Assembly (NCBI GenBank): GCA_964384905.1
Contig: CAYLND010000002.1
Span: 669-64,668 of the forward strand
Reading direction: 5' to 3'
DNA from: an uncultured Acidobacteriota bacterium
GTDB lineage: Bacteria > Acidobacteriota > Polarisedimenticolia > Gp22-AA2
DNA: 64,000 nucleotides
This document shows, piece after piece, positions 23,876-60,968 of this stretch. Under the pieces are notes generated by a model. The model saw only the letters and a list, made by a program, of their open reading frames with translations, did not search any database and was not told where the DNA came from. A program made the position numbers and the translations under genes. Position 1 is the first letter of the stretch, and each line of letters starts with the position of its first letter.

Positions 23876-25651
<1,776 letters not shown>

Positions 25652-38684: not shown

Positions 38685-39568
38685 CCACCGCCTCGGCGCG
38701 TCTGGACCGGTGGCGGCAGGCCCTTCTCCTGCCGGGCGAAACCGATCTGATCGCGTCCGCGATGAGCGAGCTGTCCGACTACTTCGGCATCAGCCGCGGC
38801 GAAGCGGAGAGCCGCGCCCGGGACGCCGTCCGCCGGACGCGGGACGTCTGGAACGCGGCCCCCCGTGGCACCCTTCAGGAAATCGAGGAGTTCTACAACA
38901 CCTCCGACGACTACATCTTCGAGCTGGTCCACTGGCACGCGACGCTCTCCGAGGCGGAGACGCTGGCGAACGTGGCGGCTCTCGAGGTCGCCGAGCGGAT
39001 GGGGGTGCGGCGGTCTCTCGATTTCGGCGGCGGCGTGGGGGCCAATCTGCTGCTGTTCGCGACCGCCGGAATCGAGGTCACCGACGCCGACATCTCGGAT
39101 CCGCTCCTGGCGTTCTCGCGCTGGCGTCTGGGTCGGCGCGGCGTGCCCGCGTCCTTCATCGATCTCAAGACCGACGTGCTCCCGGGCGGACGGTTCGACA
39201 TGCTGACCGTGATGGATGTCCTGGAGCACGTCCCGGACCCCGTGGCCACCCTCGGCTCCGCCCTGCAGGCGCTCGCGCCGGAGGGTCTGGCGGTCGTCGC
39301 GCTCGGGTTCGGCTGCGACCCCGATCATCCGATGCATGTCGTGCACTCGCCGCGGCGGTTTCTCTCCGGGGTGCGCGCCCTCGGGCTGGAGCGGGACGAT
39401 CCTCCCGAGCTGCGAGAGTTCTCCTTCATCCGGACGTATCGGCGGGTCGACCGCAGGCCTGCGGTCAACCGCCTGGTGCTGGCCCAGGACACGATCCGGG
39501 AGGGAGCGCGCGGCATGATGCGCTTCGCGGCGACGGTGCGCCGCCGGATCTCGGGAGGAGTCGCGTGA
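38681..39568 (+). CDS. class I SAM-dependent methyltransferase
   Basis: Motif I-like LDFGGGVGANLL and motif post-I/II (DVLEHV). GTGA overlap with the upstream gene. Confidence 0.7.
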   Translation: MTTASARLDRWRQALLLPGETDLIASAMSELSDYFGISRGEAESRARDAVRRTRDVWNAAPRGTLQEIEEFYNTSDDYIFELVHWHATLSEAETLANVAALEVAERMGVRRSLDFGGGVGANLLLFATAGIEVTDADISDPLLAFSRWRLGRRGVPASFIDLKTDVLPGGRFDMLTVMDVLEHVPDPVATLGSALQALAPEGLAVVALGFGCDPDHPMHVVHSPRRFLSGVRALGLERDDPPELREFSFIRTYRRVDRRPAVNRLVLAQDTIREGARGMMRFAATVRRRISGGVA

Positions 39569-44011: not shown

Positions 44012-44020
44012 GACGTGAAC

Positions 44021-46064: not shown

Positions 46065-47689
46065 GGATCGCGATCCCGGGCCTGCGGCGCACGGCGGGGC
46101 AGGAGATCGTGATCCTGCTGCTGGCGCTGGCGGCGTTCGTCGCGGCGCTCGCCCCGGCCCTGCGTGAGACCGGAACGCCGCCGGGATGGGATCAATCGAT
46201 CCACCTCCGGGACAGCCTCGTCTACGAGCGCATCCTGCGGCATCCGTCGGCGCTGGCGGGCGGCGTGCTCGGCGACATCCTGCACGGCTCCGAGGAGTTC
46301 CCGCTGCTGACGCCATCGGGGTATTACCCGCCGCTCGTCCCGGGGATCACCGCGCTCCTCTATCGCGTCGCCGGCCGCTCGTACGAGACCGCGATGGCGA
46401 CGCAGATTCTGTTCCTGGTCCTGCTGGTCTTCGGCACCTGGGCGCTCGGGAATCGGCTTCTCGGCTCGCCGATCGGTCTCGCGGCCGGACTGCTCCTGAT
46501 GGCGGCCCCGGGAATCCGGCTGAGCGCCGGGGAGTACATGCTCGATCTTCCCCTGGCGGCGATGGTGGTCGTGTCGGCGTGGGCCCTCCTGGAGACCGGC
46601 GGCTTCGTCCGGCGCGATCGCAGCGTGCTGTTCGGTCTTCTGGCGGGCGCGGGCATGCTGACCAAGTGGACCTTCTTCCTTTTCCTCGCGGTGCCGGTGA
46701 TCCTGGCGCTCGCCCGGGAGCCCGCATCGGTCTCCCGGGCCCCGGTCCCGCGGAGCCGACGGTGGGGCCATGCCGCGCTGGCGCTGGTCGCCGCCACGCT
46801 CGTCGCGGCTCCGTATTACGTGCCGATTCTCCCCATCCTCGTCCGCAAGACGGTCGTCCATGCCGGTGGCGCCGCGGACGGGAGCCCGTCTCCTTTTTCT
46901 TTGGAGTCGGTCCTGTATCACCTCGAGGCGCTGCCCCGGAAGACGCTCGGATGGCCTCTCACGATCTCGGCGGCGGCCGGAATCCTGGTCTTCCTCCGGC
47001 GCGGAGCGGAGACGCGCGGAGCCCGGACGCTCCTCGCGACCTGGGCGTCGTCTCTCTATCTCTTCTTCACCTTCGTCGTGGCGAACAAGCAGTCGCGCTA
47101 TCTCCTCCCGTGGATCCCGATCCTGCTGCTGATGGCGGCGGGCGGGCTCGCGGCGCTGTGGCGTCGCGCGGCGGCCGGCAGGGAGCAGGTCGCTATCGGC
47201 CTGCTGATGCTTCTTCCCGCCGCCGGTCTCGCCGGGGGATGGCGCTCGGAAAACGCCGGAGACTGGCACATCCGGCCGCTCGTCGCGGGTCTGGAGCAGG
47301 AGCTGGCCCGGCGCTCCGACCGGGCGCACCGGGTCCCGACCCTGGGGGTGATCCCCGACATGCGGGAGGTGAACGGCCCCACCATCGCCTACTACGCGGC
47401 GCGTCAGGAGCTCCCCGTGACCGTCGTGCAGCTGGTGAACCGGATGAAGCGGCACGTCGCGGTCGATGTGGGGCTGGATCCGTTCGGCCGGGACGATTTC
47501 TACCAGGCCTTCGAGCGCTACGATTTCCTGGCCACCAAGGACGGCGACAATGCGGTTGTGCCGTGGGAGGACGTGGTCCCCAGGATGCAGGCCTATTTCG
47601 AGAAGAGACGGACGGAGTTCGACCTGCTGGCGTCGTTCCGCGAGCCGGACGGATCGACCCTGGCGTTGTACGGAAGGAAGCGCGGATGA
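46061..47689 (+). CDS. GT-C-fold membrane glycosyltransferase (GT39/GT83, PMT/ArnT-like)
   Basis: 542 aa, ~11 TM helices with a periplasmic loop after TM1 and a C-terminal soluble domain. ATGA overlap. Confidence 0.6.
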   Translation: MRIAIPGLRRTAGQEIVILLLALAAFVAALAPALRETGTPPGWDQSIHLRDSLVYERILRHPSALAGGVLGDILHGSEEFPLLTPSGYYPPLVPGITALLYRVAGRSYETAMATQILFLVLLVFGTWALGNRLLGSPIGLAAGLLLMAAPGIRLSAGEYMLDLPLAAMVVVSAWALLETGGFVRRDRSVLFGLLAGAGMLTKWTFFLFLAVPVILALAREPASVSRAPVPRSRRWGHAALALVAATLVAAPYYVPILPILVRKTVVHAGGAADGSPSPFSLESVLYHLEALPRKTLGWPLTISAAAGILVFLRRGAETRGARTLLATWASSLYLFFTFVVANKQSRYLLPWIPILLLMAAGGLAALWRRAAAGREQVAIGLLMLLPAAGLAGGWRSENAGDWHIRPLVAGLEQELARRSDRAHRVPTLGVIPDMREVNGPTIAYYAARQELPVTVVQLVNRMKRHVAVDVGLDPFGRDDFYQAFERYDFLATKDGDNAVVPWEDVVPRMQAYFEKRRTEFDLLASFREPDGSTLALYGRKRG

Positions 47690-49689
47690 GCCAGGTCAGT
47701 CGCTCGCTGAACCACGCCCGCCTTCCCGTCGCCCGGGCCGGACCCGCGCTCCTGGGCGGTCAGGTCCTGGCCGGGGCGCTGGCCGCCTGCGCCGCGGCGT
47801 CGGGGCTCGTCGCGTGGAACATCCATTCGATCCTCGGGCGTTTCGACACGCTCGCCTACCTGCTCCAGGAAGCGCATGCGGTTCAGATCGCGCGGCTGCG
47901 CGCCGCGCTGCTCGTCGCCGCCCTCTCGTCCGCCGTCGTCGCCGTCGTGGCGCTCGTCGCCTGGCGCAGGGCGCTCACCCTGGCGGGCGCCGGGCTCGCC
48001 GCGGCCGGCCTTCTCGCCGGCCCCCTGGCGCGCGCCTATCTGGCGCCGCAAGGCGGGCTGGAGGAGAGCCTGATCTACCGGTTGCGCGGGTTCTCGGCGA
48101 TCGGGATCATCGGCGGTCTGTATCTGATCGTCCTGTCGCTGCTCCCTTCGATCCTCGAGCGACCGGCGGGCGCCTGGGAAAGAGGGGTGACGTCCGTGGT
48201 CCGCCGTGGCATCGATGCCCTGCAGCGTACCCGCCTCTGGCGCCTGCGGATCGCCATCGGCGTGTTCGCGTTCCTGGCGGCGAGCGCGGTCGGGCTTCTC
48301 GTCCTCCAGGATTTCCCCAATTCCTCGGACGAGAACTCCTATCTCACGCAGGCGCGCATCTTCGCGGGCGGCAGGCTCTGGGTCGAGGCTCCGCCCCATC
48401 CGGAATTCTTCCTGGCGCGCAGCTTCATCATGGACGAGGCGAAGGGCCGCTTCTTCGCGAAGGCCTTTCCCGGCTGGGCCGCCATCCTGTCGCTCGGCGT
48501 CCGGGCGGGGGCGCCCTGGGCGATGAACCCGCTGCTGTCGGCGGCGACTTTGATCCTGGCCGGCTGGGCCGGAGGGCGCCTCCTGGGCCGGCACGGCGAG
48601 CTGGCGGTCGTCGCCATCATCCTGGGGAGCCCGTTCTTCCTGCTGAACGCCGCCTCCTACTTCAACCATCCGGCGACGGCGCTGCTGATCACGCTGTTCC
48701 TGGCGGCGGTGATTCGGGCGTCGGAGGGTGGCGGAATCTCCTGGGGGATCGTGGCGGGGCTTTCGACCGGCGCGGCTCTCTGGATCCGTCCGGCCGCGGC
48801 GGTCATTCTCACGGCGCCCCTGACGATCTGGATCGCTTCGCGGTGGGTGCGGGAGGGCCGGTGGGGACGCCTGGCGGCGGCCGCCGCGCCCGTGCTCGCC
48901 GCGGCCGCCGGGGTCGCCTTCTACAACCGACGGATGTTCGGATCGATCGGGCGGACGGGATACGGAGCGTACGACCCCAACGACATCCGCCCCGGCCTGG
49001 GTGCGGACCACCTGATGGTGACCGGGTGGTGGCTGCTCAAGCTGTGCTTCTGGCTCGCTCCCGGCGTGGTCGCGGGGCTGTGGCTCCTTGTCAGCCGGCG
49101 CCGCTGGTCCGAGTGGTACCGGCGCGAGCCGGTCCAGGTGCTGATGCTGGCGTCGCTGGCCGGCCTGCTGCTCGCATGCCTGGTGTTCCAGAACAAAGGA
49201 GGCAACGAGTACGGTCCGCGCTATTACTACGACGGCATCACCTATCTGGCGATCCTCGTTTCAGCCGGCTGGATGCGCGCGCCGGAGGCTCTCGACCGCG
49301 CCGCCGCGCCGTGGAGAGTGCGGCGGGGTGCCGCCCTGGCGCTCGGGTGCGGCGCCTTCCTGACGCTCGCCGGGTCGGTGCCCTTCCTGATGTTCCACTA
49401 CCACGACAAGGTCGGCCACAACCGGGATCTGTTCACGTCGGTCGAGCGGGCGGGTGTCCCGTCGGCGCTCGTGTTCCTCGCGACCGGCAGCGGCCGGATG
49501 CCGCCCGGGGACCTGGTACGGAATCCTCTCGATTTTCGCAGCGGCGTGGTCTACGCGAGGGACCTCGGTCGCGAGGCCGATCGAGAGCTGGCCGCGCGGT
49601 TTCCGGACCGTCCGGCGCTGGTCTACGCCTACGATCCTCAGGTCCGCCGTTCCACGCTCCGGCCGCTCGACGTCGGGGTCCCGAAGTGA
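47686..49689 (+). CDS. GT-C-like polytopic membrane protein (putative polyprenol-phosphate-sugar-dependent glycosyltransferase)
   Basis: 667 aa, many TM helices, a DE-containing first periplasmic loop (FPNSSDENSYLTQ) as in PMT/ArnT enzymes. ATGA overlap. Confidence 0.5.
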   Translation: MSQVSRSLNHARLPVARAGPALLGGQVLAGALAACAAASGLVAWNIHSILGRFDTLAYLLQEAHAVQIARLRAALLVAALSSAVVAVVALVAWRRALTLAGAGLAAAGLLAGPLARAYLAPQGGLEESLIYRLRGFSAIGIIGGLYLIVLSLLPSILERPAGAWERGVTSVVRRGIDALQRTRLWRLRIAIGVFAFLAASAVGLLVLQDFPNSSDENSYLTQARIFAGGRLWVEAPPHPEFFLARSFIMDEAKGRFFAKAFPGWAAILSLGVRAGAPWAMNPLLSAATLILAGWAGGRLLGRHGELAVVAIILGSPFFLLNAASYFNHPATALLITLFLAAVIRASEGGGISWGIVAGLSTGAALWIRPAAAVILTAPLTIWIASRWVREGRWGRLAAAAAPVLAAAAGVAFYNRRMFGSIGRTGYGAYDPNDIRPGLGADHLMVTGWWLLKLCFWLAPGVVAGLWLLVSRRRWSEWYRREPVQVLMLASLAGLLLACLVFQNKGGNEYGPRYYYDGITYLAILVSAGWMRAPEALDRAAAPWRVRRGAALALGCGAFLTLAGSVPFLMFHYHDKVGHNRDLFTSVERAGVPSALVFLATGSGRMPPGDLVRNPLDFRSGVVYARDLGREADRELAARFPDRPALVYAYDPQVRRSTLRPLDVGVPK

Positions 49690-50639
49690 CCCCATCTCTG
49701 ACCGTGCTCGTCTGCACGCACAACCGCGCCGACCTGCTGCGGGGCGCTCTCGCAAGCCTGGAGCGCCAGACGCTCGATCGGAGCCGGTTCGAGGTCCTCG
49801 TGGTGGACAACGCGTCCACCGACGCGACCGCCGCCGTGGTCGCGGAGTGCGCGGCGCGCGGCGCCATCGACCTCCGCTCCGTCCGCGAGGACGAGCTGGG
49901 GCTCGACGCGGCCCGGAACCGGGGCATCCGGGAATCGGCGGGAGAGATCGTCGCCTTCCTCGATGATGACGCGCGCCCCCGGGACGACTGGGCGGCCGAG
50001 GTCCTGGCGGGATTCGCACGTCACGAGGCACCGATCCTGGGCGGCCGTGTCGACCTGATCTGGGAGGCGCCCCGGCCGGCGTGGCTCAGCGACGCGCTGC
50101 TGCGCTACCTGATCCATTGCGACTACGGGCCGGCGGTCGTGGCGGTGACCGCCCCGCCCTGGCTGTACGGCACCAACGTGGCGTTCCGGAGGAGCGTGTT
50201 CCAGGAGCTCGGGCTGTTCCGCCTCGACCTCGATCGGAAGGGTGAATCTCTGATGGGCGGCGGCGACACCGAGTTCTTCGAGCGGGCGCACGCGCGCGGC
50301 CACCGGCTGCTCTACCTCCCGAGCCTCGTGGTCCGGCACCTGGTGCCCGCCTCGCGACTGACGCGCGCGTTCTTCCGGGAGAGGCTCCTGTACTCCGGCT
50401 ACACGCGCGCCGCCATCGGCACGGAGGGGACCGGAGCGATCGCGATGCACTGTCTGCTGTTCACCCTTGGCGGTCCTGTGTGCGCGCTGGCCGCGGCGGT
50501 TCTGCGGCTGGCCGGCCGTCCCGACCTCAGCTTCGCCCAGGAGCGCCGCGCGCTGCTGGGAGCGGGCTACCTTTATTACTGGTTCCTGCGAGCCGTCGGG
50601 AAGGTTCCGCCCCCCCAGCTGGAGGCCTGGACCTCGTGA
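49686..50639 (+). CDS. glycosyltransferase family 2
   Basis: LTVLVCTHNR...VVDNASTD...FLDDDA pattern. GTGA overlap. Confidence 0.8.
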   Translation: MTPSLTVLVCTHNRADLLRGALASLERQTLDRSRFEVLVVDNASTDATAAVVAECAARGAIDLRSVREDELGLDAARNRGIRESAGEIVAFLDDDARPRDDWAAEVLAGFARHEAPILGGRVDLIWEAPRPAWLSDALLRYLIHCDYGPAVVAVTAPPWLYGTNVAFRRSVFQELGLFRLDLDRKGESLMGGGDTEFFERAHARGHRLLYLPSLVVRHLVPASRLTRAFFRERLLYSGYTRAAIGTEGTGAIAMHCLLFTLGGPVCALAAAVLRLAGRPDLSFAQERRALLGAGYLYYWFLRAVGKVPPPQLEAWTS

Positions 50640-52132
50640 CACCCGCCCGAATCAAGAAAGTGCTTCTCCTCAACGGACCGGACGACCGGGTCGACTCGGT
50701 GATGATCCGCAGCGGCGACCGCTGGCCCCACCGGCTGCCGCGCAAGATCACCAAGCAGGTCCCACACGCCTATCCGTTCTGGTTCGCGCAGTGCGGGGCG
50801 TTGCTGAAGCGGCGGGGCTATCAGGTGGTCTACGTCGATTCGATCGGAGAGGGGCTGGGGATCGACGGGACCGTGGAGCGCTTCGCCGAGGAGCGTGCCG
50901 ATATGGTGGTGGTCGCCACGTCGACACCCACGATCCACACCGATCTCCTCATGGCCCGGCTGGCGAAGGAGACGACGCGCGCCGTGACGGTGCTGGTCGA
51001 CACGCACGTGACGGTGTTCCACCGCGAGCTGGTGGCCGAGACGTTCGTCGACGCCGCCGTGCGCGGCGAGTTCGAGGTGGCGGTGCCCGATCTGGCGGAC
51101 GCCCTCAACGCCGGCGACGATCTGTCGCCGGTGGAGGGGGTGACCTGGAAGCGGGCCGGAGAGGTCGTGGTCAATCCCGACAGGCCGCTGATCAGGGATC
51201 TGGACGATCTGCCCTGGCCCGACCGCGACCTGGTGCCCGGGGACCAGTACATCGTCGGCCTGCGCACCCAGGATCCCTGCTTCATGGTGATGGCCAGCAG
51301 GGGCTGCCCGTTCCGCTGCACCTTCTGTCTCTGGGTGCCGGTCCTGTTCAACAACAAGGTCCGCTTCCGCGACGTCGAGCAGGTCGTGGACGAGATCGTC
51401 CACCTGCAGGAGAAGTACGGCGCGCGGGAGGTGTTCTTCCACGATGACACCGTCAACGTCACCGTCCGGCGGGTCGAGGAGATCTGCAACGCGATCCTGC
51501 GCCGTGGAGTGACGATCGGCTGGATCGCGAACTTTCGCGGCGACCAGACGACCCCCGAGATGTTCCGGCTGATGAAGAAGGCCGGCTGCACCAAGATCCT
51601 GCTGGGCGTCGAGAGCGGCTCGCAGAGGCTCCTGGACGAGACCATCGACAAGGAGATCACTCTGAAAGAGGTGGAGGACACGATCCGCTGGGCCAAGGAG
51701 GCGGGGATCCGGGTGCACTGCACCTACTCGCTGGGCGCGCCGGGCGAGACCCGGGAGACGCTCAAGGAGACTCTCGAGTTCATCAAGAAGACCGAGCCGG
51801 ACGACATCCAGGTCAGCCTGATGACCCCGATCCCGGGGACGCCCTTTTACGAGAAGGTGAAGGACCAGGTGGCCGACTGGCACGACTTCGACGGCGTGTC
51901 CGGACGCTCCTGGTGCGATCTCTCCACCGCCGAGCTGAAGAACGCCATGAACCGGATCTACATCGAGCACTACCTGACGCCGCGGCGCGTCCTGAAGCGC
52001 GTCTTCAGCATCCGTAACGTCTACGACATCAAGGAGAACTGGCGGCAGTTCAAGGCGTTCCTCAGCCGCTACGCCGCGACCGGTCTGCCGCGGCCGATCG
52101 GAACGCGGTTCGAGGGGCAGGAGAAAGCGTGA
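50636..52132 (+). CDS. cobalamin (B12)-binding radical SAM protein
   Basis: N-terminal B12-binding-like Rossmann region (KKVLLLNGPDD...VVVATSTPT), a radical SAM core with CPFRCTFC, and an elongator/class-B-like C-terminus. GTGA overlap. Confidence 0.8.
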   Translation: MTPARIKKVLLLNGPDDRVDSVMIRSGDRWPHRLPRKITKQVPHAYPFWFAQCGALLKRRGYQVVYVDSIGEGLGIDGTVERFAEERADMVVVATSTPTIHTDLLMARLAKETTRAVTVLVDTHVTVFHRELVAETFVDAAVRGEFEVAVPDLADALNAGDDLSPVEGVTWKRAGEVVVNPDRPLIRDLDDLPWPDRDLVPGDQYIVGLRTQDPCFMVMASRGCPFRCTFCLWVPVLFNNKVRFRDVEQVVDEIVHLQEKYGAREVFFHDDTVNVTVRRVEEICNAILRRGVTIGWIANFRGDQTTPEMFRLMKKAGCTKILLGVESGSQRLLDETIDKEITLKEVEDTIRWAKEAGIRVHCTYSLGAPGETRETLKETLEFIKKTEPDDIQVSLMTPIPGTPFYEKVKDQVADWHDFDGVSGRSWCDLSTAELKNAMNRIYIEHYLTPRRVLKRVFSIRNVYDIKENWRQFKAFLSRYAATGLPRPIGTRFEGQEKA

Positions 52133-53349
52133 AGATCACGGTCCTCTGCGGGCGGTATCCCTATTCCGGGGCCGGCGTCATCGCGCGCGAGTCGGCCGAG
52201 GAGCTGGCGCGCCGGCACGAGGTGACCTTCGTCCACGGTGGGGACGCGGACTTCGATCGTCGCGAGGGAGCGCTGCGGGTGATCTCCCTGGCGCTGCCTC
52301 CCGCGGAGGAGCAAGGGATCTCCCACCTGTACTGGAGCCCCGCGATCCTGCGCCGGCTCCGCCAGACGCTCCGCGAGGTCAATTCCGATCTGATCCACTT
52401 CCATATCATCCAGCGCCGCAGCTTCTCGCTGGCGTCGCTTCTCCTGTCGCGGAGCCGGCGGGCCTTCTGGACGATCCACGATCAATGGCCGCTGTGCGTC
52501 CGCTCGGTCCCGGAGCCGCCGGGCTGCGAGGGGATGAAGCGGTTCTGCCTGTTCTGCACCGCCTGGCCGGGGTTCTCCGTCGCCAACAAGGTGATCAAGG
52601 AAGCGGTCTTCGCGGCCTCCCGGGTGGAGGTGGTGGTGCCGTCTCGCTGGCTCGGCGACCTGCTCCGCCGCTCGTTCCTCGGGCGCAAGCGGGTGCACCT
52701 GGTCTACAACGGAATCGACCTGAATCTCTTCCGCCCGGGCGCGGGAGCGATCGACGGCGGGGAGAAACGACCGCCGACGGTTCTCTACGTGGCGGGTCCG
52801 AACGATCCCACCAAAGGGATCGCCGACCTCCTGCCCGCCTTCCTGGCGCTCCGGGAGAGGTATCGAGGGCTCCGCCTGCGGGTGGTCGGTGATCCGCCCG
52901 GCGGGCTCGCCGGCGCGGAAGGCGTCGAGCTCGCCGGTCGTGTGCCGCGGGAGGAGATGCCGGACGAGTACCGGCGCTGCGATCTCTTCGTGCTCCCCAC
53001 GCTCTCCGACAACACGCCGGTCACCCTGATGGAGGCGATGGCGTCCGGCCTGCCGGCCGTGGCGACGGCGGTGGGCGGCATTCCGGAGCTGGTGACTCCC
53101 GGAGTCACCGGCCGTCTGGTCCCGCCGGGCGATCGTCCGGCGCTGGCGGCGGCGATGGAGGGCCTCCTGGCGGACCACGGCGCGCGGCGGCGGATGGGCG
53201 CGGCGGGCAGGAAGGTCGCGGAGGCGCGATTCGCGCGACAACGCATGGTTTCGGAGCTGGAGGACATTTACGGCGTGGCTCGCGGGCGGTCGCGCGATGC
53301 GGAGCGCGTGCCCGGCATGCCGGCACCTGCTTGTGGAGGTCAACGATGA
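52129..53349 (+). CDS. glycosyltransferase family 4 (GT-B, group 1)
   Basis: GT4 C-terminal pattern (CDLFVLPTLSDNTPVTLMEAMASGLPAVATAVGGIPE). GTGA overlap. Confidence 0.8.
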   Translation: MKITVLCGRYPYSGAGVIARESAEELARRHEVTFVHGGDADFDRREGALRVISLALPPAEEQGISHLYWSPAILRRLRQTLREVNSDLIHFHIIQRRSFSLASLLLSRSRRAFWTIHDQWPLCVRSVPEPPGCEGMKRFCLFCTAWPGFSVANKVIKEAVFAASRVEVVVPSRWLGDLLRRSFLGRKRVHLVYNGIDLNLFRPGAGAIDGGEKRPPTVLYVAGPNDPTKGIADLLPAFLALRERYRGLRLRVVGDPPGGLAGAEGVELAGRVPREEMPDEYRRCDLFVLPTLSDNTPVTLMEAMASGLPAVATAVGGIPELVTPGVTGRLVPPGDRPALAAAMEGLLADHGARRRMGAAGRKVAEARFARQRMVSELEDIYGVARGRSRDAERVPGMPAPACGGQR

Positions 53350-55082
53350 AAGCGGTGATTCTCGCCGGCGGCCGGGACACACATCTGGTGCCGCTGGTGC
53401 GGACGATGCCCAAGCCGCTCCTGCCGGTGGCCAATCGCCCGATGGTGGAGTACCTTCTGGATCTCCTGAAGGACAACGGCATCCGTGAGGTCGCCCTCAC
53501 CATCAACGAGGACGCCGATCGGTACGAGGAGGTTCTCGGTGACGGCCGCCGGCTCGGGATGCGGCTGCATTACTCGCGCGAGACCGTCCCGAGCGGCACG
53601 GCGGGATGCCTGCTCCCCCTGGCCGATTTCCTCGGGCGCAAGCCGTTCCTCGTCATCCACGGGAGTCTGTTCCTGAACGCCGATCTGAAGGGGCTGATCG
53701 ACTCCCACCGGCTCCGCAGGGCGGTCGCCACCCTGGGCGTCCGCAGGACGTCCGGCGGCTCGCGTGACTGGCATCAGCTGGAATTGCGACTCGGGGAAGG
53801 GGACCGCGTCGAGGGGATCAAGGTTCACGATCTCTCCGATCGCGGGCGGCATGCCCCCGTGCCGGCGGGCGTGTACATGTTCGATCCGGCGGTCCTGGGC
53901 TCGATCGAGCCGGGGATCTACTACGACATCAAGGAGCAGCTGCTGCCCCGGCTGCGTCAGGAAGGGAAGCCGGTGTTCGCCTGCGAGATCCAGGGCTACT
54001 GCCGGAACGTTCTGGAGATGAACGACTACCTGAAAGTCAATCGGTCCGTTCTGCGTGCGGAGGTGAACGGATACCGCTTCGAGGGCCAGATCGCCGACGG
54101 CATCTGGGTTGGACGGGGAAGCGACGTCTCGCCGCAGGCGACCCTCCTCGGACCGGTGATGATCGGACGGGACTGCGTCATCGGGCCCGGCGTCCAGATC
54201 ATCGGCCCCACCTGCATCGGAGACGGTTGTCTGGTGGAGGAGGGGGCCCTGTTGAGGGAGAGCCTGCTGCATCCCGGAGCCCGGGTGGAGCAGAATTCCA
54301 GGGTCGAGGGGTGCGTCCTGACCGCGGACACCGTGGTTACCTCGGGCCAGGCCTTGCGGGAGGTGGTGACGATCCCGGAAGGGCTGGACGTGGGCGAGCT
54401 CGACCTGGCCGACGCCGAGCTGCTGATCCAGGGAGTGGCGGCGTCCGCCGGCCGGTACGCGCAGAGTCATCTGCGCTACCTGCTCTATCGCACGTGCAAG
54501 CGCGGGCTCGATCTGGCGGCGGCGCTGGCCGGTCTGGTCGTGCTATCGCCCTTGTTCGTCGCGGTGGCTCTCGCCATCAGGATGACGAGCCCCGGTCCGG
54601 TCTTCTTCCGGCAAAGGCGGTGCGGTCGCCACGGGCGCGAGTTCATGATGGTCAAGTTCCGCACCATGGTGAAGGACGCCGAGAACATGCAGGCGCAGCT
54701 CCGACCGCTCAACGAAGTGGACGGGCCCGTCTTCAAGATGGAGAACGATCCGCGCTCCACGACCCTCGGGCGTTTCATGCGCAAGTACAGCATCGACGAG
54801 ATGCCGCAGCTCTGGAACGTCCTGAAAGGTGAGATGAGCCTGGTCGGCCCCCGGCCCCTGGCCGCCAAGGAGATGCGGTTCTGCTCCGCCTGGCGCGACG
54901 TGCGGCTGAAGGTCCGTCCGGGAATCACCGGTCTGTGGCAGATCAGCGGCCGAAGCAAGAGCTCGTTCCACGATTGGATCCGCCTGGACATCGAATATGT
55001 CCAGGAGCGATCCCTGTTCCGGGATCTGCAGATACTCTTCAAGACTCTCAGCGTCGTCATCCGGGCGCTGGGGTCTTTCTGA
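53346..55082 (+). CDS. bifunctional fusion of a sugar-1-phosphate nucleotidylyltransferase (with LbH domain) and a polyprenyl-phosphate glycosylphosphotransferase (bacterial sugar transferase domain)
   Basis: The N-terminus reads MKAVILAGGRDTHLVPLVRTMPKPLLPVANRPMVEY (NTP_transferase G-x-G-T-R-L-like), followed by hexapeptide repeats. The C-terminal ~200 aa have one TM helix and the WbaP/WcaJ-type sugar transferase pattern (KRGLDLAAALAGLVVLSPLF...KFRTM...DE.PQLWNVLKGEMSLVGPRP). ATGA overlap. Confidence 0.75.
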   Translation: MKAVILAGGRDTHLVPLVRTMPKPLLPVANRPMVEYLLDLLKDNGIREVALTINEDADRYEEVLGDGRRLGMRLHYSRETVPSGTAGCLLPLADFLGRKPFLVIHGSLFLNADLKGLIDSHRLRRAVATLGVRRTSGGSRDWHQLELRLGEGDRVEGIKVHDLSDRGRHAPVPAGVYMFDPAVLGSIEPGIYYDIKEQLLPRLRQEGKPVFACEIQGYCRNVLEMNDYLKVNRSVLRAEVNGYRFEGQIADGIWVGRGSDVSPQATLLGPVMIGRDCVIGPGVQIIGPTCIGDGCLVEEGALLRESLLHPGARVEQNSRVEGCVLTADTVVTSGQALREVVTIPEGLDVGELDLADAELLIQGVAASAGRYAQSHLRYLLYRTCKRGLDLAAALAGLVVLSPLFVAVALAIRMTSPGPVFFRQRRCGRHGREFMMVKFRTMVKDAENMQAQLRPLNEVDGPVFKMENDPRSTTLGRFMRKYSIDEMPQLWNVLKGEMSLVGPRPLAAKEMRFCSAWRDVRLKVRPGITGLWQISGRSKSSFHDWIRLDIEYVQERSLFRDLQILFKTLSVVIRALGSF

Positions 55083-55118: not shown

Positions 55119-57311
55119 ATGGCTGACGCGGTCCACCAGGAAACACCGTTCGACCTGCAGCGCTATCTCCACCTTCTGTGGAGACGGAAGTGGCTCATCG
55201 CGGGCTTCGCCGCGGTCCTGACGGTGGCGGTGGGAGTCGGCACCTATTTCCAGCCGAAGCTGTACGAGGCCAAGGTGACCCTCCTCGCCGGTCGGGACAG
55301 CCCGCGTCTCTTGACCTCCGATCCGATCCCCGGCGAGCGGATCGGTCAGCGGGACTATCTGAAGACTCAGGCCGCGATCCTGACCAGCCGCAGCCTCCTC
55401 CAGGGGGCGATCAAGGACCTGATGAAGGAAGGCTTCTACGGTCAGGTGGACCCCGCGAAGATCGAGGAGAAATCCCTGGCCGCCGCCGCCGAGCTGCAGC
55501 GCCGGGTGCGGGTCGTGACCACGGAGGACACGCAGGTGATCTCCGTCATCGTGGAAGGAGGGCTGCCGGACCGGGTCGCCCGCATCGCCAACGCCATCGC
55601 CGACGAGTTCGTCAACAGCAACGAGGAATCCAGAGTGTCGATGGCGAACCAGGCGGTCGCCTGGCTCACCACCAAGCTGGCCGAGCAGCGCGTCAAGCTG
55701 ACCGCCGCGGAGGACGACCTGAGGGCGTACAAGGAGAAGGAGAAAATCGTCGCCCCGGATGACGCCGATCCCTTCTCGACGTTGAACCTGAGCCGGCTCA
55801 ACGACGACTACCTGACCACCCGGTTCCAGCTGATGGAGAAGCAGGCGCGGCTCGCCGCGATGAAGAAGAGCCGCGAATCCCATTCCGCGAAGGGCCGGGC
55901 CTCCGCGGCCGCGTCCCTGGACCTGGAGATTCAGCGCAAGCTCCGGGAGAGCCTGGAGGCCGAATACGTCCAGGCCCAGGTCGATCTCCGGAATCTGTCG
56001 CAGCGCTATGGTCCGGAGCATCCCGACATCATCACGCTCAAGGAGAAGGTGGCGAAGATTGCCAAGGAGCTGGAGAACGTCGGCGACACCCCCGCCCGCC
56101 CTGAAGAGGCGCCCGTGGTCACGCAGGCCCAGATCGCCGATCTCCAGGCCGAGGTGACTGCTCTGACCCAGAAGGAATCGGCCCTGGCGAGCACTCTCGA
56201 AGCGTACAAGGCGCAGGCCCGCAGCCAGTCGAAGACCGCGATCGGCTATTCGCTGCGCAAGCAGGCGGTCGACCTGAACCGCCAGACGTACAACGATCTC
56301 CTGGCGCGTCTCAACGACGCGCAGCTCTCCGGCCAGATCAAGGTCAACACGGTCAAGGTCCTGGACCGGGCCGAGCCGCCCAAGGGGCCGGTGGAGCCCC
56401 AGCCGGCGCGCAACCTGATGGTGGCGGTCCTTCTGGGACTGGTGCTCGGAGTCGGTCTCGCCATTCTCGCGGAGAACCTCGACCGTGGCATCAAGAATCC
56501 CGAAGAGGCGGTGCGCTACCTGCGTCTGCCGCTCCTCACCGTCATTCCAGGATTCGGTCTCGGCCGGGGCGTCGGGAAGGAGGAGGGGAAGGCCAAGCTC
56601 GTCACGATCGACGAGCCGCGCTCGCACGCCGCCGAGTGCTATCGGAACCTGAGGACCTCCATCCTGTTCTCGACCGGGCATCCCGTGCCCAAGACGATCC
56701 TGATCACCAGCGCGGTGGGCGGCGAGGGCAAATCGACCACCGCCGCCAACCTGGCGGTGGTGATGAGCCAGAACGGCCGGAAGGTCCTGCTGATCGACGG
56801 CGATCTCCGGAGACCGGCCCTGCATCGTTACTTCACGCGGCAGAAGGGCGGCGGCATCGTCCGCCTCCTGAAGGAGACCTGCCGGCCGGAGGAGGCGGTG
56901 CAACGCTCCTTCGTCGAGAATCTCGATCTTCTCCTGTGTCACGAGGCTCCGAGCAATCCCTCCGAGCTTCTCGGGTCGAGCCGGATGCTCAGCATGATCG
57001 CGCACTTCCGTGAGCGCTACGACGTCGTGGTGATCGACTCCCCCGTGGTCGTCTCGGTCGCGGACTCTCTCATCCTGGCGTCGAGGGCCGAGGCGATCGT
57101 CATGGTGCACCGCCCCGGCGCGGCGAGCCGGGAGATGGTGCGGCACGCGCGCGAGAGCCTCGACCAGGTGAAGGCCAACATCCTCGGTCTGGTCCTGAAC
57201 AACGTCGACCTCGAGGCGCAGCCGTACGCCTATTCGCACCATCGCTACTACGGCTACGGCATGGAGGACGAGCCGAAGCCACGGAACGACCGGGTGGGGA
57301 AGAAGGCGTGA
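55119..57311 (+). CDS. polysaccharide co-polymerase / BY-family tyrosine autokinase (Wzc-like)
   Basis: N-terminal TM plus Wzz-like periplasmic coiled-coil region, a second TM, and a C-terminal P-loop kinase domain (TSAVGGEGKSTTAANLAV, DGDLRRP, VVIDSPVV). Confidence 0.85.
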   Translation: MADAVHQETPFDLQRYLHLLWRRKWLIAGFAAVLTVAVGVGTYFQPKLYEAKVTLLAGRDSPRLLTSDPIPGERIGQRDYLKTQAAILTSRSLLQGAIKDLMKEGFYGQVDPAKIEEKSLAAAAELQRRVRVVTTEDTQVISVIVEGGLPDRVARIANAIADEFVNSNEESRVSMANQAVAWLTTKLAEQRVKLTAAEDDLRAYKEKEKIVAPDDADPFSTLNLSRLNDDYLTTRFQLMEKQARLAAMKKSRESHSAKGRASAAASLDLEIQRKLRESLEAEYVQAQVDLRNLSQRYGPEHPDIITLKEKVAKIAKELENVGDTPARPEEAPVVTQAQIADLQAEVTALTQKESALASTLEAYKAQARSQSKTAIGYSLRKQAVDLNRQTYNDLLARLNDAQLSGQIKVNTVKVLDRAEPPKGPVEPQPARNLMVAVLLGLVLGVGLAILAENLDRGIKNPEEAVRYLRLPLLTVIPGFGLGRGVGKEEGKAKLVTIDEPRSHAAECYRNLRTSILFSTGHPVPKTILITSAVGGEGKSTTAANLAVVMSQNGRKVLLIDGDLRRPALHRYFTRQKGGGIVRLLKETCRPEEAVQRSFVENLDLLLCHEAPSNPSELLGSSRMLSMIAHFRERYDVVVIDSPVVVSVADSLILASRAEAIVMVHRPGAASREMVRHARESLDQVKANILGLVLNNVDLEAQPYAYSHHRYYGYGMEDEPKPRNDRVGKKA

Positions 57312-58330: not shown

Positions 58331-59460
58331 CCCGCCGGACGATCCTGGTGACCGGCGGCGCCGGATTCATCGGCACGCACCTGACATCGGCCCTGATCGA
58401 GAAAGGCCATCGGGTGCGGGTGCTCGACGTCCTGGATCCGCAGGTCCACGGCTCCGGCCCCGGCCGGCCGAGCGCTGAAGACATCGAGATGATCCGGGGG
58501 GATCTGCTGGACCCCGACGCGCTGAGTCGCGCCCTGGCCGGCGCGGAGGTCGTGTTCCACCTGGCGGCCGCCGTGGGGGTGGGGCAGTCGATGTACGAAG
58601 CGGCGCGCTATACCCGCGTCAACAGCGTCGGGACCGCGATGCTGATGGAACGAATCACCGCGCCGGGGTCGCGGGTGGAGAAGGTGATCGTTGCCTCCTC
58701 GATGTCGATCTACGGCGAGGGTCGGTATCGCTGCGCCGCGTGCGGTCCCGTGGCGCCCGAGCTTCGCAGCCGGGAGCAGCTCCTCGATGGACGATGGGAG
58801 CCGCCCTGTCCCGGCTGCGGGGAGCGCCTCGAGGCCGTGCCCACCGACGAGTCCAAGCCGCTGAATCCGACCTCGGTCTACGGGGTGACCAAGCGCAGCC
58901 AGGAGGAGACCGTCCTGGTGATGGGCCGGTCGTACGGAATCCCGGCGGTCGCGCTCCGCTATTTCAACGTCTACGGCCCCGGCCAGGCCCTCTCCAATCC
59001 GTACACCGGCGCGGCGGCGATCTTCGCGAGCCGTCTCCTCCACCAGCAGCCCCCCTGCCTGTTCGAGGACGGGGAGCAGGGACGCGATTTCACGCACGTG
59101 AGCGACATCGTCCAGGCGAATCTTCTGGCCATGGAGAGGAGCGAGGCCGACGAGCAGGCGCTCAACGTCGGGACCGGGGTCCTGACCTCGATCCTGGATC
59201 TCGCGCGCGGTCTGACCCGGAAGCTGGCTCCGGACGACGGAGTGGCGCCCAGAATCCTGGGAACGTTCCGGGAGGGCGACATCCGGCACTGCTACGCCGA
59301 CATCGCGCGGATCCGGACGCTGCTGGGGTACGAGCCCAGGGTGAGGATCGAACAAGGGTTCGACGGCCTCGCCGCGTGGGCCCGCACGCAGGAGTCGGTG
59401 GACCGGTTCGATCGGGCGGCCGCCGAGCTGGTTTCGCGCGGCCTGGTGATTGGAAGATGA
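58327..59460 (+). CDS. NAD-dependent epimerase/dehydratase (SDR, UDP-sugar 4-epimerase-like)
   Basis: TGGAGFIG Rossmann motif and YxxxK (YGVTK). ATGA overlap. Confidence 0.85.
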   Translation: MTRRTILVTGGAGFIGTHLTSALIEKGHRVRVLDVLDPQVHGSGPGRPSAEDIEMIRGDLLDPDALSRALAGAEVVFHLAAAVGVGQSMYEAARYTRVNSVGTAMLMERITAPGSRVEKVIVASSMSIYGEGRYRCAACGPVAPELRSREQLLDGRWEPPCPGCGERLEAVPTDESKPLNPTSVYGVTKRSQEETVLVMGRSYGIPAVALRYFNVYGPGQALSNPYTGAAAIFASRLLHQQPPCLFEDGEQGRDFTHVSDIVQANLLAMERSEADEQALNVGTGVLTSILDLARGLTRKLAPDDGVAPRILGTFREGDIRHCYADIARIRTLLGYEPRVRIEQGFDGLAAWARTQESVDRFDRAAAELVSRGLVIGR

Positions 59461-59477
59461 AAGGAGACAACGGGACG

Positions 59478-60968
59478 ATGTTCAGAGCGCTGGTGACCAA
59501 CCCGCCCTGGCCGGGAGACGGCTTCGGGGCGCGATCCTCGGTCAGGTGGCCGCACAAGCGGAAGGACAAGAAGCTCGAGTACCCGATTTTCCTCTCGTAC
59601 GCCGTCGCCCTGACCCGGGCGGCCGGCGTCGAGACCTCCTTCCTGGACGGCGTGTGCGATGAGCTGGGGACCGAGGCGTACGCGGCCGAGGTCGATCGAC
59701 TCGCGCCCGATTTCATCGCCATGGAGTGCTCCACCCCCTCCATCGACCACGACCTCGCGTCGGTGCGCCGCATCAAGGAGCGCCGGCCCCGCGTCTTCAT
59801 CGCCCTGATGGGATCGCACGCGACCTATTTCCACCAGCAGCTCCTCCAGGAGAACCCGGAGGTGGACGCCATCATCCGCGGCGAGTTCGAGATCACCATC
59901 CGTGAGATCGCCCTCGCCCTGAAGAACGGGGCGCCGCTTTCGGGAGTCGCCGGTCTGACGTTCCGTGAGGGTCCATCGATCCGGGTCAATCCGGAGCGGC
60001 CGTTCGACATCGACCTCGACACCTGGCCCTACCCGGCCCGGGACATCGTGCCGATCGGGAAGTACCAGACCGCCCAGTACCAGGGGCGCAACGGCACCTT
60101 CATGCTCTCCAGCCGTGGCTGCCCCTACCGGTGCACCTTCTGCCTGTGGCCCGGCACGATGGTCGGACGGGACTTCCGCGCCCGCCGGCCGGAGTCGGTG
60201 GTCGACGAGATGGAGCACCTGGTGAACCACTACGGAGTGGACGACATCTATTTCGACGACGACACCATGACCATCGATCGCGAGCGTCTTCTGGAAATCT
60301 GCCGGCTGATCCAGAAGCGCGACCTCAAGGTCCACTGGATCGCCATGGGCCGGGTCGACACGGTGGACGAGGAGCTTCTGAGCGAGATGCGCAAGGCCGG
60401 GTGCGACAACATCTATCTCGGGGTGGAGTCGGGCTCGCCGGAGATCCTGAAGCGTCTCAAGAAGGGCGTCCAGCTGCCCCAGGTCGAGCGCGCCTTCCGG
60501 ATCGCCCGGAAGGTCGGCGTCAAGACCCAGGCCTTTTTCATGCTGGGTGGGCCTGGAGAAACCCAGGAGACGCTGAAGGAGACGATCGAGTTCGCCGTCC
60601 GTCTGGACCCCGACAACGCCCAGTTCGCCGCGGCGGTCCCGTACCCGGGGACGGAGATGTACGAGGAGTCCCTGCGCAAGGGATACCTGAAGGCCAGCAG
60701 CTGGGAGGACTACGCCGCCCGGGACATCGTGCTGGAGACCGAGACGCTGTCCCGTCTCGACCTGGAGAAGGCCCGTCTGGAGGCATACCGCCGCTTCTAC
60801 CTCAGGCCCCGCTTCATCCTGCGCACGGCGCTGCGTCTGACGAGCCTGCGCGAGGTCCGTCGGGTCTTCCGGGGAACGCTGTCGATCGTCAGCCGGCTGA
60901 TCTACTTCTCCAAGAACGTGAAGAGGAAGGCACGGGGGACGCCGCCCGGCGCCTTGGAGCATGCCTGA
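59478..60968 (+). CDS. cobalamin (B12)-binding radical SAM protein (second copy)
   Basis: AAAGGAGA RBS 10 nt before the ATG at 59478; an alternative ATG at 59457 overlaps the epimerase stop. B12-binding-like N-terminus and a radical SAM core CPYRCTFC. Confidence 0.8.
   Translation: MFRALVTNPPWPGDGFGARSSVRWPHKRKDKKLEYPIFLSYAVALTRAAGVETSFLDGVCDELGTEAYAAEVDRLAPDFIAMECSTPSIDHDLASVRRIKERRPRVFIALMGSHATYFHQQLLQENPEVDAIIRGEFEITIREIALALKNGAPLSGVAGLTFREGPSIRVNPERPFDIDLDTWPYPARDIVPIGKYQTAQYQGRNGTFMLSSRGCPYRCTFCLWPGTMVGRDFRARRPESVVDEMEHLVNHYGVDDIYFDDDTMTIDRERLLEICRLIQKRDLKVHWIAMGRVDTVDEELLSEMRKAGCDNIYLGVESGSPEILKRLKKGVQLPQVERAFRIARKVGVKTQAFFMLGGPGETQETLKETIEFAVRLDPDNAQFAAAVPYPGTEMYEESLRKGYLKASSWEDYAARDIVLETETLSRLDLEKARLEAYRRFYLRPRFILRTALRLTSLREVRRVFRGTLSIVSRLIYFSKNVKRKARGTPPGALEHA

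Follow-up and report, generated by a model that had tools for sequence, protein, structure and literature searches.

Gene, start site and genomic context

The window analysed here, a stretch of 64,000 nucleotides, carries a gene encoding a pyrophosphorylase-like domain, a left-handed beta-helix (LbH) and a monotopic phosphoglycosyltransferase (PGT) in a single protein (Table 1). One continuous open reading frame on the forward strand (53331/53346..55082) covers both halves. The initial annotation was right about the single frame at 53346-55082 but not about its length: a protein of 583 aa needs the TTG at 53331, and the ATG at 53346 gives 578 aa. Judging from the sequence, this ATG is the real start of the gene because it is preceded by GGAGG, shares an ATGA with the stop codon of the upstream GT4 gene (TGA, 53347-53349) and opens the MKAVILAGG that forms the N-terminus of all homologues. 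The strings KFRTM and PQLWNVLKGEMSLVGPRP, quoted initially, both occur in the frame. Pfam matches the protein to NTP_transferase (PF00483, aa 2-136, E 8e-22), to Hexapeptide/LbH repeats (aa 255-357) and to Bac_transf (PF02397, aa 385-572, E 1e-67, profile positions 1-178 of 179), both PF00483 and PF02397 above cutoff, which agrees with the architecture first proposed.

Table 1. Features of the fusion gene and its immediate neighbours (window coordinates)
Feature	Position	Strand	Residues and remarks	Basis
GT4 glycosyltransferase, upstream	52129..53349	+	translationally coupled	Pfam Glyco_trans_1_4, Glyco_transf_4
Shine-Dalgarno-like GGAGG	53335..53339	+	6 nt 5' of ATG 53346	direct reading of sequence
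Whole gene	53346..55082	+	578 aa + stop; pseudo-pyrophosphorylase, LbH, linker, monotopic PGT	ORF, Pfam
NDP-sugar-pyrophosphorylase-like (GT-A/Rossmann-like) core	53346..54080	+	aa 1-245; catalytically degenerate	
Degenerate signature loop GGRDTHLVPL	53367..53396	+	aa 8-17; replaces GGxGTRLxPL	alignment to 8x7s, 7whr, VTC1
Base-binding loop P-S-G-T-A-G	53589..53606	+	aa 82-87; retained	
H105-G106-S107	53658..53666	+	N/C-S/G-Asp in active enzymes, first metal-binding Asp (VTC1 D111)	
Invariant motif D194-I-K-E-Q-L-L-P201	53925..53948	+	loop carrying catalytic E195-K196 in VTC1	
C219-R-N221-V	54000..54011	+	replaces W-x-Asp-x, second metal-binding Asp (VTC1 D219)	
Left-handed beta-helix	54081..54380	+	aa 246-345	Pfam Hexapep, LbH_EIF2B
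Linker	54381..54485	+	aa 346-380; weakly conserved, partly low confidence	
Re-entrant membrane helix	54486..54590	+	aa 381-415; K385-R386 (54498-54503), S401-P402 (54546-54551)	
PGT globular catalytic domain	54591..55079	+	aa 416-578; D484-E485 dyad (54795-54800), G501-P-R-P504	
Wzz/GNVR chain-length determinant fused to BY-kinase, downstream	55119..57311	+		Pfam, NCBIfam

The neighbours in the window are six GT2 and two GT4 glycosyltransferases, Wza, the Wzz-BY-kinase (166 bits against NCBIfam TIGR01007, cutoff 108), a deacetylase and methyltransferases. Half of the loci that we surveyed (40 of 80) have a Wzz/GNVR-BY-kinase homologue close to the fusion gene, and distant homologues adjoin Poly_export, GNVR/Wzz, Wzy_C and Wzx. 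By its gene content the locus is a Wzx/Wzy-type exopolysaccharide cluster, related to PEP-CTERM-type loci. In a search by crude regular expression the window showed neither exosortase nor PEP-CTERM tails, and phmmer found no second nucleotidyltransferase (NTase) or PGT among all six-frame ORFs of the 64 kb.

One may ask if a sequencing or assembly error near 54480, the domain junction, simply joined two adjacent genes. In one related locus (L027) a single stop codon parts the two halves and in three others the halves are separate adjacent genes, as this explanation would have it. Yet three independent contigs yield the same 578-aa protein, residue for residue, both halves lie in one ORF in 68 of the 80 genome loci, from many phyla, and this length and architecture recur in more than 100 protein clusters (90% identity). 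GC3 is uniform throughout the junction (0.84-0.90), and the reading frame continues through the linker, which holds a conserved G-x-x-N/D-L stretch. The probability of such an artefact is negligible: the independent contigs, GC3 and the 80-locus survey rule out a frameshift or misassembly at this point. The fusion gene is genuine and conserved.

The PGT half

The C-terminal domain has the PF02397 profile (227.6 bits, cutoff 27), the re-entrant helix, the DE dyad and the PRP motif of the monotopic PGT superfamily, and is closer to WbaP structures (E 4e-44) than to PglC (E 5e-29), in line with its annotation as a WbaP-related sugar transferase. K385, D389 and P402 are invariant in the alignment of the fusions, as are D484-E485, the Asp-Glu dyad of monotopic PGTs (PMC10942596), and P502-R503-P504 in 41 fusion sequences; the globular domain has about 50 invariant columns. 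At the level of sequence, every hallmark of an active priming enzyme is present. The "one TM helix" of the initial annotation is indeed a membrane helix, but its motifs and its model point to a re-entrant helix rather than a transmembrane span. The distance of 17 residues between K385-R386 and S401-P402 equals that of K7/P24 in PglC, where both motifs, Lys-Arg and Ser-Pro, were defined (PMC6133551), and AlphaFold2 places a helix at 368-399, a break at 400 and a second helix at 401-414. Both termini should be cytoplasmic because the PGT is anchored by the re-entrant helix.

The C-terminal 200 or so residues would thus be expected to load undecaprenyl phosphate with a sugar-1-phosphate, probably hexose-1-phosphate taken from a UDP-hexose. 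This would be the initiating step, and the proposed role as repeat-unit initiator fits both the active-site hallmarks and the position in a polysaccharide cluster. The protein belongs to neither of the usual size classes. Its 380 extra N-terminal residues set it apart from small PGTs of the PglC type, which consist of the core only, and Pfam finds no match in it to PF13727 or the four-helix TM bundle of large WbaP-type PGTs. NCBIfam scores fall under the family cutoffs because the match is confined to the C-terminal third. The linker separating the PGT from the LbH has a mean pairwise identity of 0.18, and AlphaFold2 pLDDT below 50 at aa 357-366.

The N-terminal half

The N-terminal core matches PF00483 with 78.4 bits (cutoff 21.2) over profile positions 1-141 of 245 only, whereas active relatives reach 185-195 bits over the full profile. 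Among solved structures it comes closest to 8x7s, GMPPB and VTC1; the N-terminal half matches CugP/GMPP-type structures with E 2e-35 (9e-58 with a family profile), and Foldseek aligns it to 8x7s with a TM-score of 0.75. The AlphaFold2 model is of good overall confidence (pLDDT 86, pTM 0.86), and its pLDDT drops under 50 in two stretches, aa 138-142 and aa 163-166, of the variable loops around the former sugar site. In the LbH, pLDDT rises to 94-97, the short strands come in triplets, and the best match is to LbHs of a non-catalytic kind, those of GMPPB and eIF2B. Alignments of 41 and of 19 sequences hold no invariant or near-invariant His in aa 246-345, so we rejected an acyltransferase role of the GlmU C-terminal or PglD type, for which a conserved catalytic His and a trimeric acetyl-CoA site would be needed.

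In VTC1 the catalytically critical residues are D111, D219 and E195-K196, with R13 and K23 serving pyrophosphate; G9, T12 and R13 belong to the signature loop that binds the NTP phosphates, and the backbone of Gly85 touches the base (PMC9168903). We compared 41 representative fusions with the nearest unfused relatives, 46 NTase-LbH-phosphomannomutase proteins from the same search. Both metal-binding aspartates are missing: the D111 column holds Asp in none of the 41 fusions (N in 27, S in 9) and the D219 column in none either, against 45 of 46 unfused relatives in each case, and our protein has S107 and N221 in these places. The G-x-G-T-R signature of nucleotidylyltransferases has given way to GGRDTHL, with D11 for Gly11 and H13 for the pyrophosphate-binding Arg13; Gly persists at the former position in 13 fusions (45/46 unfused) and Arg at the latter in 7 (44/46). 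Among 51 further fusions, taken as 50% clusters, D111 is Asp in five and R13 is Arg in six. The lysine K23 (VTC1 numbering) is kept in our protein and in 20 of the 41, against 44 of the 46 relatives. We discarded the "EKP" lysine (VTC1 K163) as a marker, its column being poorly aligned even in active relatives.

Other parts of the pocket have been preserved. G85 and A87 of the base-binding loop are invariant in all 41 fusions, and 36 keep an acidic residue at VTC1 position 80. The loop that carries the catalytic pair in VTC1 has become a motif of its own, D(I/L)KEQLxP, with D and E in 41/41, Q in 40 and K in 39. The sugar-contacting residues of VTC1 (N173, G146, E162, W217) are not conserved, and any bound ligand may therefore be a nucleotide rather than a nucleotide-sugar. 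Relative to one orthologue of 83% identity, dN/dS is 0.14 in the core, 0.18 in the LbH and 0.12 in the PGT, and hence the N-terminal core is under purifying selection. With its catalytic residues lost, the N-terminal half is most likely a pseudoenzyme. The initial suggestions that it would activate a sugar and channel the product to the priming step run against these substitutions, at positions that unfused relatives keep in 44-45 of 46 cases.

Distribution of the module

Using the D(I/L)KEQLxP motif as a pattern, we scanned 185,579 species genomes and confirmed 133 loci, so that the fusion has orthologues and is, as first supposed, uncommon. All carriers are uncultured MAGs, of about 130 species, Nitrospira among them. 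The PGT-fused module occurs in Acidobacteriota, Nitrospirota, Desulfobacterota and KSB1. The degenerate module of Planctomycetota sits next to the PGT as its own gene or is fused to an exosortase; it lies directly 5' of the PGT as a separate gene in L079, L084 and L087, and four Planctomycetota species have the exosortase fusion (L078, L080, L085, L086). Both versions carry the D(I/L)KEQLxP motif. The module is thus portable. Two candidates were set aside along the way. P0162 might have been an intact NTase-PGT fusion, but its Pfam match covers no more of Bac_transf than the C-terminal half and the case is ambiguous, with no clear true bifunctional protein. Of two seemingly stand-alone relatives at 60% identity, P0060 and P0061, the former is a truncated copy that ends just past a degenerate re-entrant helix, in unrelated surroundings.

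In the literature we found no name for this exact protein, the fusion catalogue of the 2021 PNAS network paper lying outside the sources covered; that paper reportedly catalogues PGT fusions. Nothing relevant came up on PF02397 with PF00483, on tlr0611/CugP or on exosortases with nucleotidyltransferases.

Enzyme, partner or regulator

What does such a module do? The N-terminal half resembles GMPP/CugP enzymes in fold and domain order and still has K23 and its GTAG loop, and PGTs fused to pathway enzymes form a recognised class (PMC11626204), all of which would suit a truly bifunctional protein whose N domain makes an NDP-sugar from NTP and sugar-1-phosphate and hands it to the fused PGT. We consider this very unlikely. 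The metal-binding Asp pair is absent from every representative fusion, R13 and G11 are mostly gone although the unfused relatives keep them, and the Pfam match breaks off at profile position 141. Moreover, the same module is borne by an exosortase, for which an NDP-sugar serves no purpose. PGTs of this type use UDP-sugars, which normally come from the general pool. The former catalytic loop nevertheless bears a strictly invariant new polar motif, selection on the domain is as strong as on the PGT, and NTP_transferase is a member of the GT-A clan. With K23 kept and D194/K196/E197 invariant, the domain could perform some unconventional catalysis, maybe a new reaction. A GT-A-like fold that uses D194/K196/E197/Q198 for another reaction altogether is nonetheless improbable in our view, and so are its conceivable forms, such as transfer of a second glycosyl or phosphoryl group on the Und-PP-sugar or the hydrolytic cleavage of a nucleotide product. 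There is neither a DxD nor another recognisable catalytic signature, the loops of the former sugar site are variable and poorly modelled, and the cluster already has eight separate glycosyltransferases.

A dead module might also serve as a recruitment scaffold, using its LbH to pair with an active pyrophosphorylase that is encoded elsewhere as a free protein, and so tying donor synthesis to the membrane PGT, with channelling in trans. There is precedent in GMPPA-GMPPB and KONJAC-VTC1, where inactive and active paralogues pair through the LbH (PMC9168903); PDB 7d72 and 8yre are among the structural matches, and purifying selection on the module agrees with such a role. But in none of the 80 loci is there a second NTase or active pyrophosphorylase gene within 6 kb, nor does the 64 kb window hold one, the data indicate no specific partner and the exosortase fusion is left unexplained. 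We regard recruitment as unlikely. The loss of catalytic residues therefore makes a regulatory or assembly module the most likely role, rather than a two-step channelling enzyme. In our reading, the protein is probably the initiating monotopic PGT of a Wzx/Wzy-type locus with a pseudo-pyrophosphorylase accessory module.

A probable pseudo-pyrophosphorylase accessory to a PGT

The N-terminal 345 residues would descend from a CugP/GMPP-type NDP-sugar pyrophosphorylase with an LbH that lost NDP-sugar synthesis but kept, under purifying selection, the fold, the nucleobase-binding loop and its new motif. Active enzymes of this type (tlr0611, 8x7s; VTC1, 7x8k; GMPPB, 7d72; Leishmania GMPP, 7whr) are the best matches in sequence and fold and have the same LbH. 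They carry GxGTR, K23, D111 and D219, in contrast to the D11, H13, S107 and N221 of our protein. From analogy and conservation, we suggest that the LbH may dimerise the PGT and that the degenerate pocket may bind a nucleotide or nucleotide-sugar and tune its activity in one direction or the other.

Inactive pyrophosphorylase paralogues offer the closest parallel. GMPPA, KONJAC1/2, eIF2B gamma/epsilon and the large subunit of plant AGPase have the same core and LbH, and searches with the N-terminal half by sequence and by structure match, among others, 7d72_A, 8yre_A and eIF2B chains. Like them, the module combines a nucleotidyltransferase core and an LbH with lost catalytic residues and a retained nucleotide loop. 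GMPPA and KONJAC have a regulatory or scaffolding role, dimerisation via the LbH has a precedent as well (PMC9168903), and another study likewise gives such paralogues a regulatory or scaffolding role (PMC11228364). The targets of these proteins are a soluble paralogous enzyme or eIF2. The present module, which is bacterial and marked by a D(I/L)KEQLxP signature of its own, is instead covalently linked to a membrane PGT or an exosortase, or encoded next to one. It would parallel GMPPA, the inactive regulator of GMPPB.

Among PGTs, the large monotopic enzymes (WbaP, EpsZ, WcaJ; PDB 8t53) have the nearest catalytic core and share the re-entrant helix, the DE dyad, the initiating role in Wzx/Wzy loci and a cytoplasmic N-terminal accessory domain. 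Our protein differs in lacking the 4-TM bundle and PF13727, its accessory part being of an unrelated fold. The WbaP DUF serves dimerisation and nucleotide sensing (PMC10942596), and EpsZ is activated through promoted dimerisation (PMC12802240). The pyrophosphorylase-like module might stand in for the 4-TM bundle and the nucleotide-sensing DUF. Bi-PGTs, in which a PGT is fused to acetyltransferase or glycosyltransferase domains (PMC10942596, PMC11626204), also join a PGT core to a soluble domain from nucleotide-sugar metabolism. Here, however, the second, enzyme-derived domain lacks its catalytic residues and appears non-catalytic by sequence, and the protein would hence be bifunctional in architecture only.

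Priming enzymes of about 130 uncultured species thus seem to carry a dead pyrophosphorylase in place of the usual accessory domains. Examples of control are known among PGTs: the WbaP DUF senses UMP, EpsW activates EpsZ and CapM is phosphorylated. The module would be a third, independent answer to the problem of control, and a clean bacterial case of the conversion of an enzyme into a regulator. More tentatively, and with somewhat less than even confidence, the D(I/L)KEQLxP module and its LbH might form an undescribed, portable cytoplasmic sensor of nucleotides or nucleotide-sugars that acts as a gate on membrane steps in exopolysaccharide and PEP-CTERM systems. If so, it would be a bacterial counterpart of GMPPA that couples precursor supply to the commitment of undecaprenyl phosphate. 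For annotation, automatically assigned labels such as "NDP-sugar pyrophosphorylase", "GlmU" or "bifunctional" should be corrected, as they imply a sugar activation that these genomes may lack. The exosortase-fused copies tie the module to protein sorting in PEP-CTERM systems.

Gene structure and distribution of the fusion

The open frame on the forward strand runs from TTG 53331 or ATG 53346 to a stop at 55080-55082. ATG 53346 is the true start codon: a GGAGG stands before it at 53335-53339, it shares an ATGA overlap with the stop codon of the GT4 gene upstream, and it agrees with the N-termini of the homologues, every one of which begins with MKAVILAGG. The single frame of the initial annotation is thus retained, but its 583 residues were counted from TTG 53331 and the protein has 578. 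Pfam parsing confirmed the sugar transferase domain proposed for the C-terminus (see table). Among NCBIfam models, EPS_sugtrans, EpsZ, WbaP and WcaJ matched only the C-terminal third, and those of the mannose-1-phosphate guanylyltransferase type matched the N-terminal 340 residues, all under cutoff. In the linker between the halves, which is otherwise variable, one short part of the family alignment is conserved (consensus L-x-x-G-x-x-N/D-L) and AlphaFold2 places a helix at residues 349-355; this part could serve in interactions or as a membrane-proximal element.

Could the fusion be an artefact? We give this practically no credence. GC3 remains at 0.84-0.90 in each 100-codon window across the junction, and three independent contigs carry an identical called protein. 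Over 100 protein clusters of this Pfam architecture, with lengths of about 578 residues, were retrieved from 5.8 billion proteins, at identities between 84% and about 40%; among the sources named are Ca. Polarisedimenticolia, Deltaproteobacteria, Planctomycetes and KSB1. We also scanned 185,579 species genomes with the family peptide [YF]xD[IL]KEQL[LIV]P. This gave 133 confirmed loci, all in MAGs, from Acidobacteriota, Nitrospirota (including Nitrospira), Thermodesulfobacteriota/Deltaproteobacteria, Planctomycetota, KSB1, Schekmanbacteria and Nitrospinae. The orthologous fusions that the initial annotation proposed to look for are therefore there: of the best 80 of these 133 loci, 68 have a single ORF that spans the two halves. 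The MAG 'Acidobacteria bacterium gp22 AA3' (QHXY01) has two paralogous fusion genes, L012 and L016, with N-terminal modules 82% and 38% identical to that of the window, and hence single organisms can have two such priming enzymes at different loci.

Features of the window and of related loci (L, related genome loci; aa, residues of the fusion protein)
Feature	Position	Strand	Remarks
NTP_transferase	aa 2-136	+	Pfam
Hexapeptide/left-handed beta-helix models	aa 255-357	+	Pfam
Linker	54381-54485, aa 346-380	+	variable overall
Bac_transf (PF02397)	aa 385-572	+	Pfam, E 1e-67, full profile
Multihaem cytochrome	15364-16809		electron-transfer-like module
MtrB/PioB-type outer-membrane porin	18045-21461		E 1e-65
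NorB-like haem-copper oxidase	21436-23811		electron-transfer-like module
Wza-like exporter gene	28413-29132		upstream of NusG paralogue
Heparinase II/III-like gene	29238-31367		upstream of NusG paralogue
UpxY/RfaH-like NusG paralogue	33147-33728		near cluster head; under NCBIfam cutoffs
Radical-SAM/SPASM enzyme	44015-45124		in cluster
B12-binding radical-SAM enzymes (two)	50480-52132, 58740-60968		in cluster; best match HpnJ, under cutoff
Separate-gene form	L079:5917-8794, L084:1693-4114, L087:5674-8737		module of 340-375 aa directly upstream of PGT of 500-590 aa
Split form	L027:5905-7725		one stop codon between the two halves
Exosortase-fused form	L078:5875-7869, L080:1830-3806, L085:5875-7833, L086:3195-5219		Planctomycetota (Phycisphaerae); module N-terminal

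An apparently intact phosphoglycosyl transferase

The C-terminal phosphoglycosyl transferase (PGT) half matches the solved structures of WbaP (E 4e-44) and PglC (E 5e-29). About 50 columns are invariant besides the D484-E485 dyad and P502-R503-P504, and this half looks fully functional as judged from its sequence. AlphaFold2, run on a 41-sequence alignment (mean pLDDT 86.3, pTM 0.86), predicts a helix at 368-399, a break and a helix at 401-414. The helix previously read as transmembrane is thus present, but it is re-entrant rather than membrane-spanning. Such a helix puts both termini in the cytoplasm, so that the topology accommodates a soluble N-terminal domain. A UDP-hexose is the probable donor, as the best-matching EpsZ, WbaP and WcaJ models weakly suggest. 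The fusion gene is the sole PGT gene of the window.

By every feature open to test, the protein classifies as a member of the monotopic PGT superfamily. Unlike large PGTs it has neither the four-helix transmembrane (4-TM) bundle nor PF13727, and it does not belong to the small PGTs either. Only its architecture agrees with the Bi-PGT class, its second domain being without catalytic residues. In the literature searched, the fusion and its D(I/L)KEQLxP module are undescribed; the bare domain architecture has possibly been listed before, in a 2021 PNAS catalogue of PGT fusions.

A pyrophosphorylase fold without its catalytic residues

The best solved relatives of the N-terminal module are tlr0611 (8x7s, deposited as a UTP-glucose-1-phosphate uridylyltransferase), Leishmania GMPP, VTC1 and GMPPB. 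Single-sequence searches gave E-values from 2e-35 down to 8e-24, the family profile reached 9e-58 with 8x7s and about 1e-40 with the remaining structures, and the Foldseek TM-score to 8x7s is 0.75. In VTC1, Asp111, Asp219 and Glu195-Lys196 are catalytically critical, and Gly9, Thr12, Arg13 and Lys23 form the pyrophosphate site (PMC9168903). We aligned the window protein to VTC1, 7whr and 8x7s. Where active enzymes have GGFGTRLRPLT, VLNSD and GFWMDIG, it has GGRDTHLVPLV, VIHGS and GYCRNVL. Among 41 family-spanning representatives (VTC1 numbering), neither position 111 (Asn in 27, Ser in nine) nor position 219 is ever Asp; R13 is Arg in seven, G11 is Gly in 13 and K23 is Lys in 20. The 'EKP' lysine column was dropped as a marker, as it aligned poorly even among active relatives. 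Pfam NTP_transferase covers the window protein over profile positions 1-141 only, with 78 bits, whereas active relatives match at full length with 185-195 bits.

As a control, we searched exhaustively with the N-module alone using HMMER and classified the 150 nearest representatives at 50% identity. The 51 that carry a PGT are degenerate (D111 is Asp in five, R13 is Arg in six, D219 is essentially never Asp). In contrast, the 46 fusions of nucleotidyltransferase, beta-helix and phosphomannomutase, of about 830 residues, keep G11 in 45, R13 and K23 in 44 each, and D111 and D219 in 45 each. The loss is thus specific to the PGT-linked clade and not an alignment artefact. In this search P0162 (542 residues) was the sole PGT-linked relative with intact GxGxR, K23, D111 and D219; it matches PF00483 at full length (186 bits) and only the C-terminal half of Bac_transf. 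It may be chimeric or fragmentary, or stem from a different lineage.

The module is nevertheless maintained. Relative to the 83%-identical orthologue L008, dN/dS is 0.14 in the nucleotidyltransferase core, 0.18 in the beta-helix and 0.12 in the PGT. The nucleobase-binding loop is retained (G85 and A87 in 41/41; position 80 is acidic in 36/41); the positions contacting the sugar in VTC1 (N173, G146, E162, W217) are not kept in the family. The loop bearing E195-K196 in VTC1 has instead a family-specific motif, D-(I/L)-K-E-Q-L-x-P, with D and E in all 41 representatives, Q in 40 and K in 39.

The module also occurs in other contexts (see table). It is fused to the PGT in some lineages and lies beside it in others, a Rosetta-stone pattern that speaks for physical partnership of the two. 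Its attachment to an exosortase (PF09721, E 1e-55; TIGR02602, 155 bits with the cutoff at 105) argues that its role is not sugar activation. In these genomes the exosortase fusion is followed by a PGT gene about 3 kb downstream; we found no description of this architecture. In all of the separate, split and exosortase-fused versions the catalytic residues are missing, and PxGTAG and D(I/L)KEQL are retained. P0060 (L006:5001-6287), a 428-residue copy with 60% identity to the window protein, has no PGT domain: it ends just past a degenerate re-entrant helix without Ser-Pro. Its gene has an unrelated context, beside PBP1A, and is probably a decaying or repurposed paralogue.

Possible roles of the module

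The fusion is a real and conserved feature, and sequence comparisons do not support the channelling of an NDP-sugar, made by an N-terminal domain that would activate it, to the priming step. This proposal of the initial annotation conflicts with the loss of the catalytic residues and with the exosortase-fused versions: on the three defining features tested, the protein does not appear to be a functional sugar-1-phosphate nucleotidylyltransferase. What the comparisons indicate is an intact priming PGT joined to a catalytically degenerate module that is conserved, is under selection and has kept its base-binding loop; the protein resembles the pseudo-pyrophosphorylases GMPPA, KONJAC and eIF2B gamma/epsilon. 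By analogy, we infer that this module stands in for two parts of WbaP-type enzymes, the 4-TM bundle and the DUF, which serve in dimerisation and nucleotide (UMP) sensing (PMC10942596). The beta-helix is the dimerisation element of the pyrophosphorylase family, whose inactive members GMPPA and KONJAC are regulators (PMC9168903), and the related PGT EpsZ is activated by promoted dimerisation (PMC12802240). Following these precedents, the beta-helix would drive dimerisation of the fusion protein, the degenerate pocket would bind a nucleotide or nucleotide-sugar, and both together might tune the commitment of undecaprenyl phosphate.

Among the rivals to this regulatory role, which we ranked by probability, recruitment of a free, active pyrophosphorylase by beta-helix pairing comes first and is still unlikely; no second pyrophosphorylase-like ORF was found within 6 kb of the gene at any of the best 80 loci, or anywhere in the window. 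A new catalytic function of the module is less probable again. The family alignments contain no conserved His in the beta-helix, which makes acetyltransferase chemistry unlikely. A truly bifunctional enzyme is slightly more doubtful still, and an artefactual fusion comes last.

Genomic context

The fusion gene lies in a forward-strand cluster that begins near 28.4 kb and continues to the end of the window, with a Wza-like Poly_export gene, the NusG paralogue (probably an operon-specific antiterminator), six GT2 and two GT4 glycosyltransferases, methyltransferases, a polysaccharide deacetylase, three radical-SAM enzymes and an epimerase/dehydratase. Directly 3' of the fusion gene is a Wzz-BY-kinase gene. 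For several neighbours the best matches are XrtA/PEP-CTERM exopolysaccharide families, with scores under cutoff. Distant fusion genes adjoin Poly_export, GNVR/Wzz, Wzy_C, Wzx, GT2 and MBOAT genes; among the best 80 loci, Poly_export homologues occur at 46 and Wzz/BY-kinase homologues at 40. A B12 radical-SAM homologue lies near the fusion gene at 10 of these 80 (e.g. L001:9768-11828, L004:8235-9590), and this recurrence suggests unusual C-methylation or rearrangement of the polymer.

Upstream of the cluster, an extracellular-electron-transfer-like module (15364-23811) also contains a radical-SAM gene and is followed by a Ser/Thr kinase gene (23831-25651). The long ORFs 31943-33169, 35721-38684, 46186-49689 and 62106-63551 have marginal or no family matches. 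For two of them there is overlap with another long ORF in a different frame (35721-38684 with 36998-39568, and 46186-49689 with 47466-50639).
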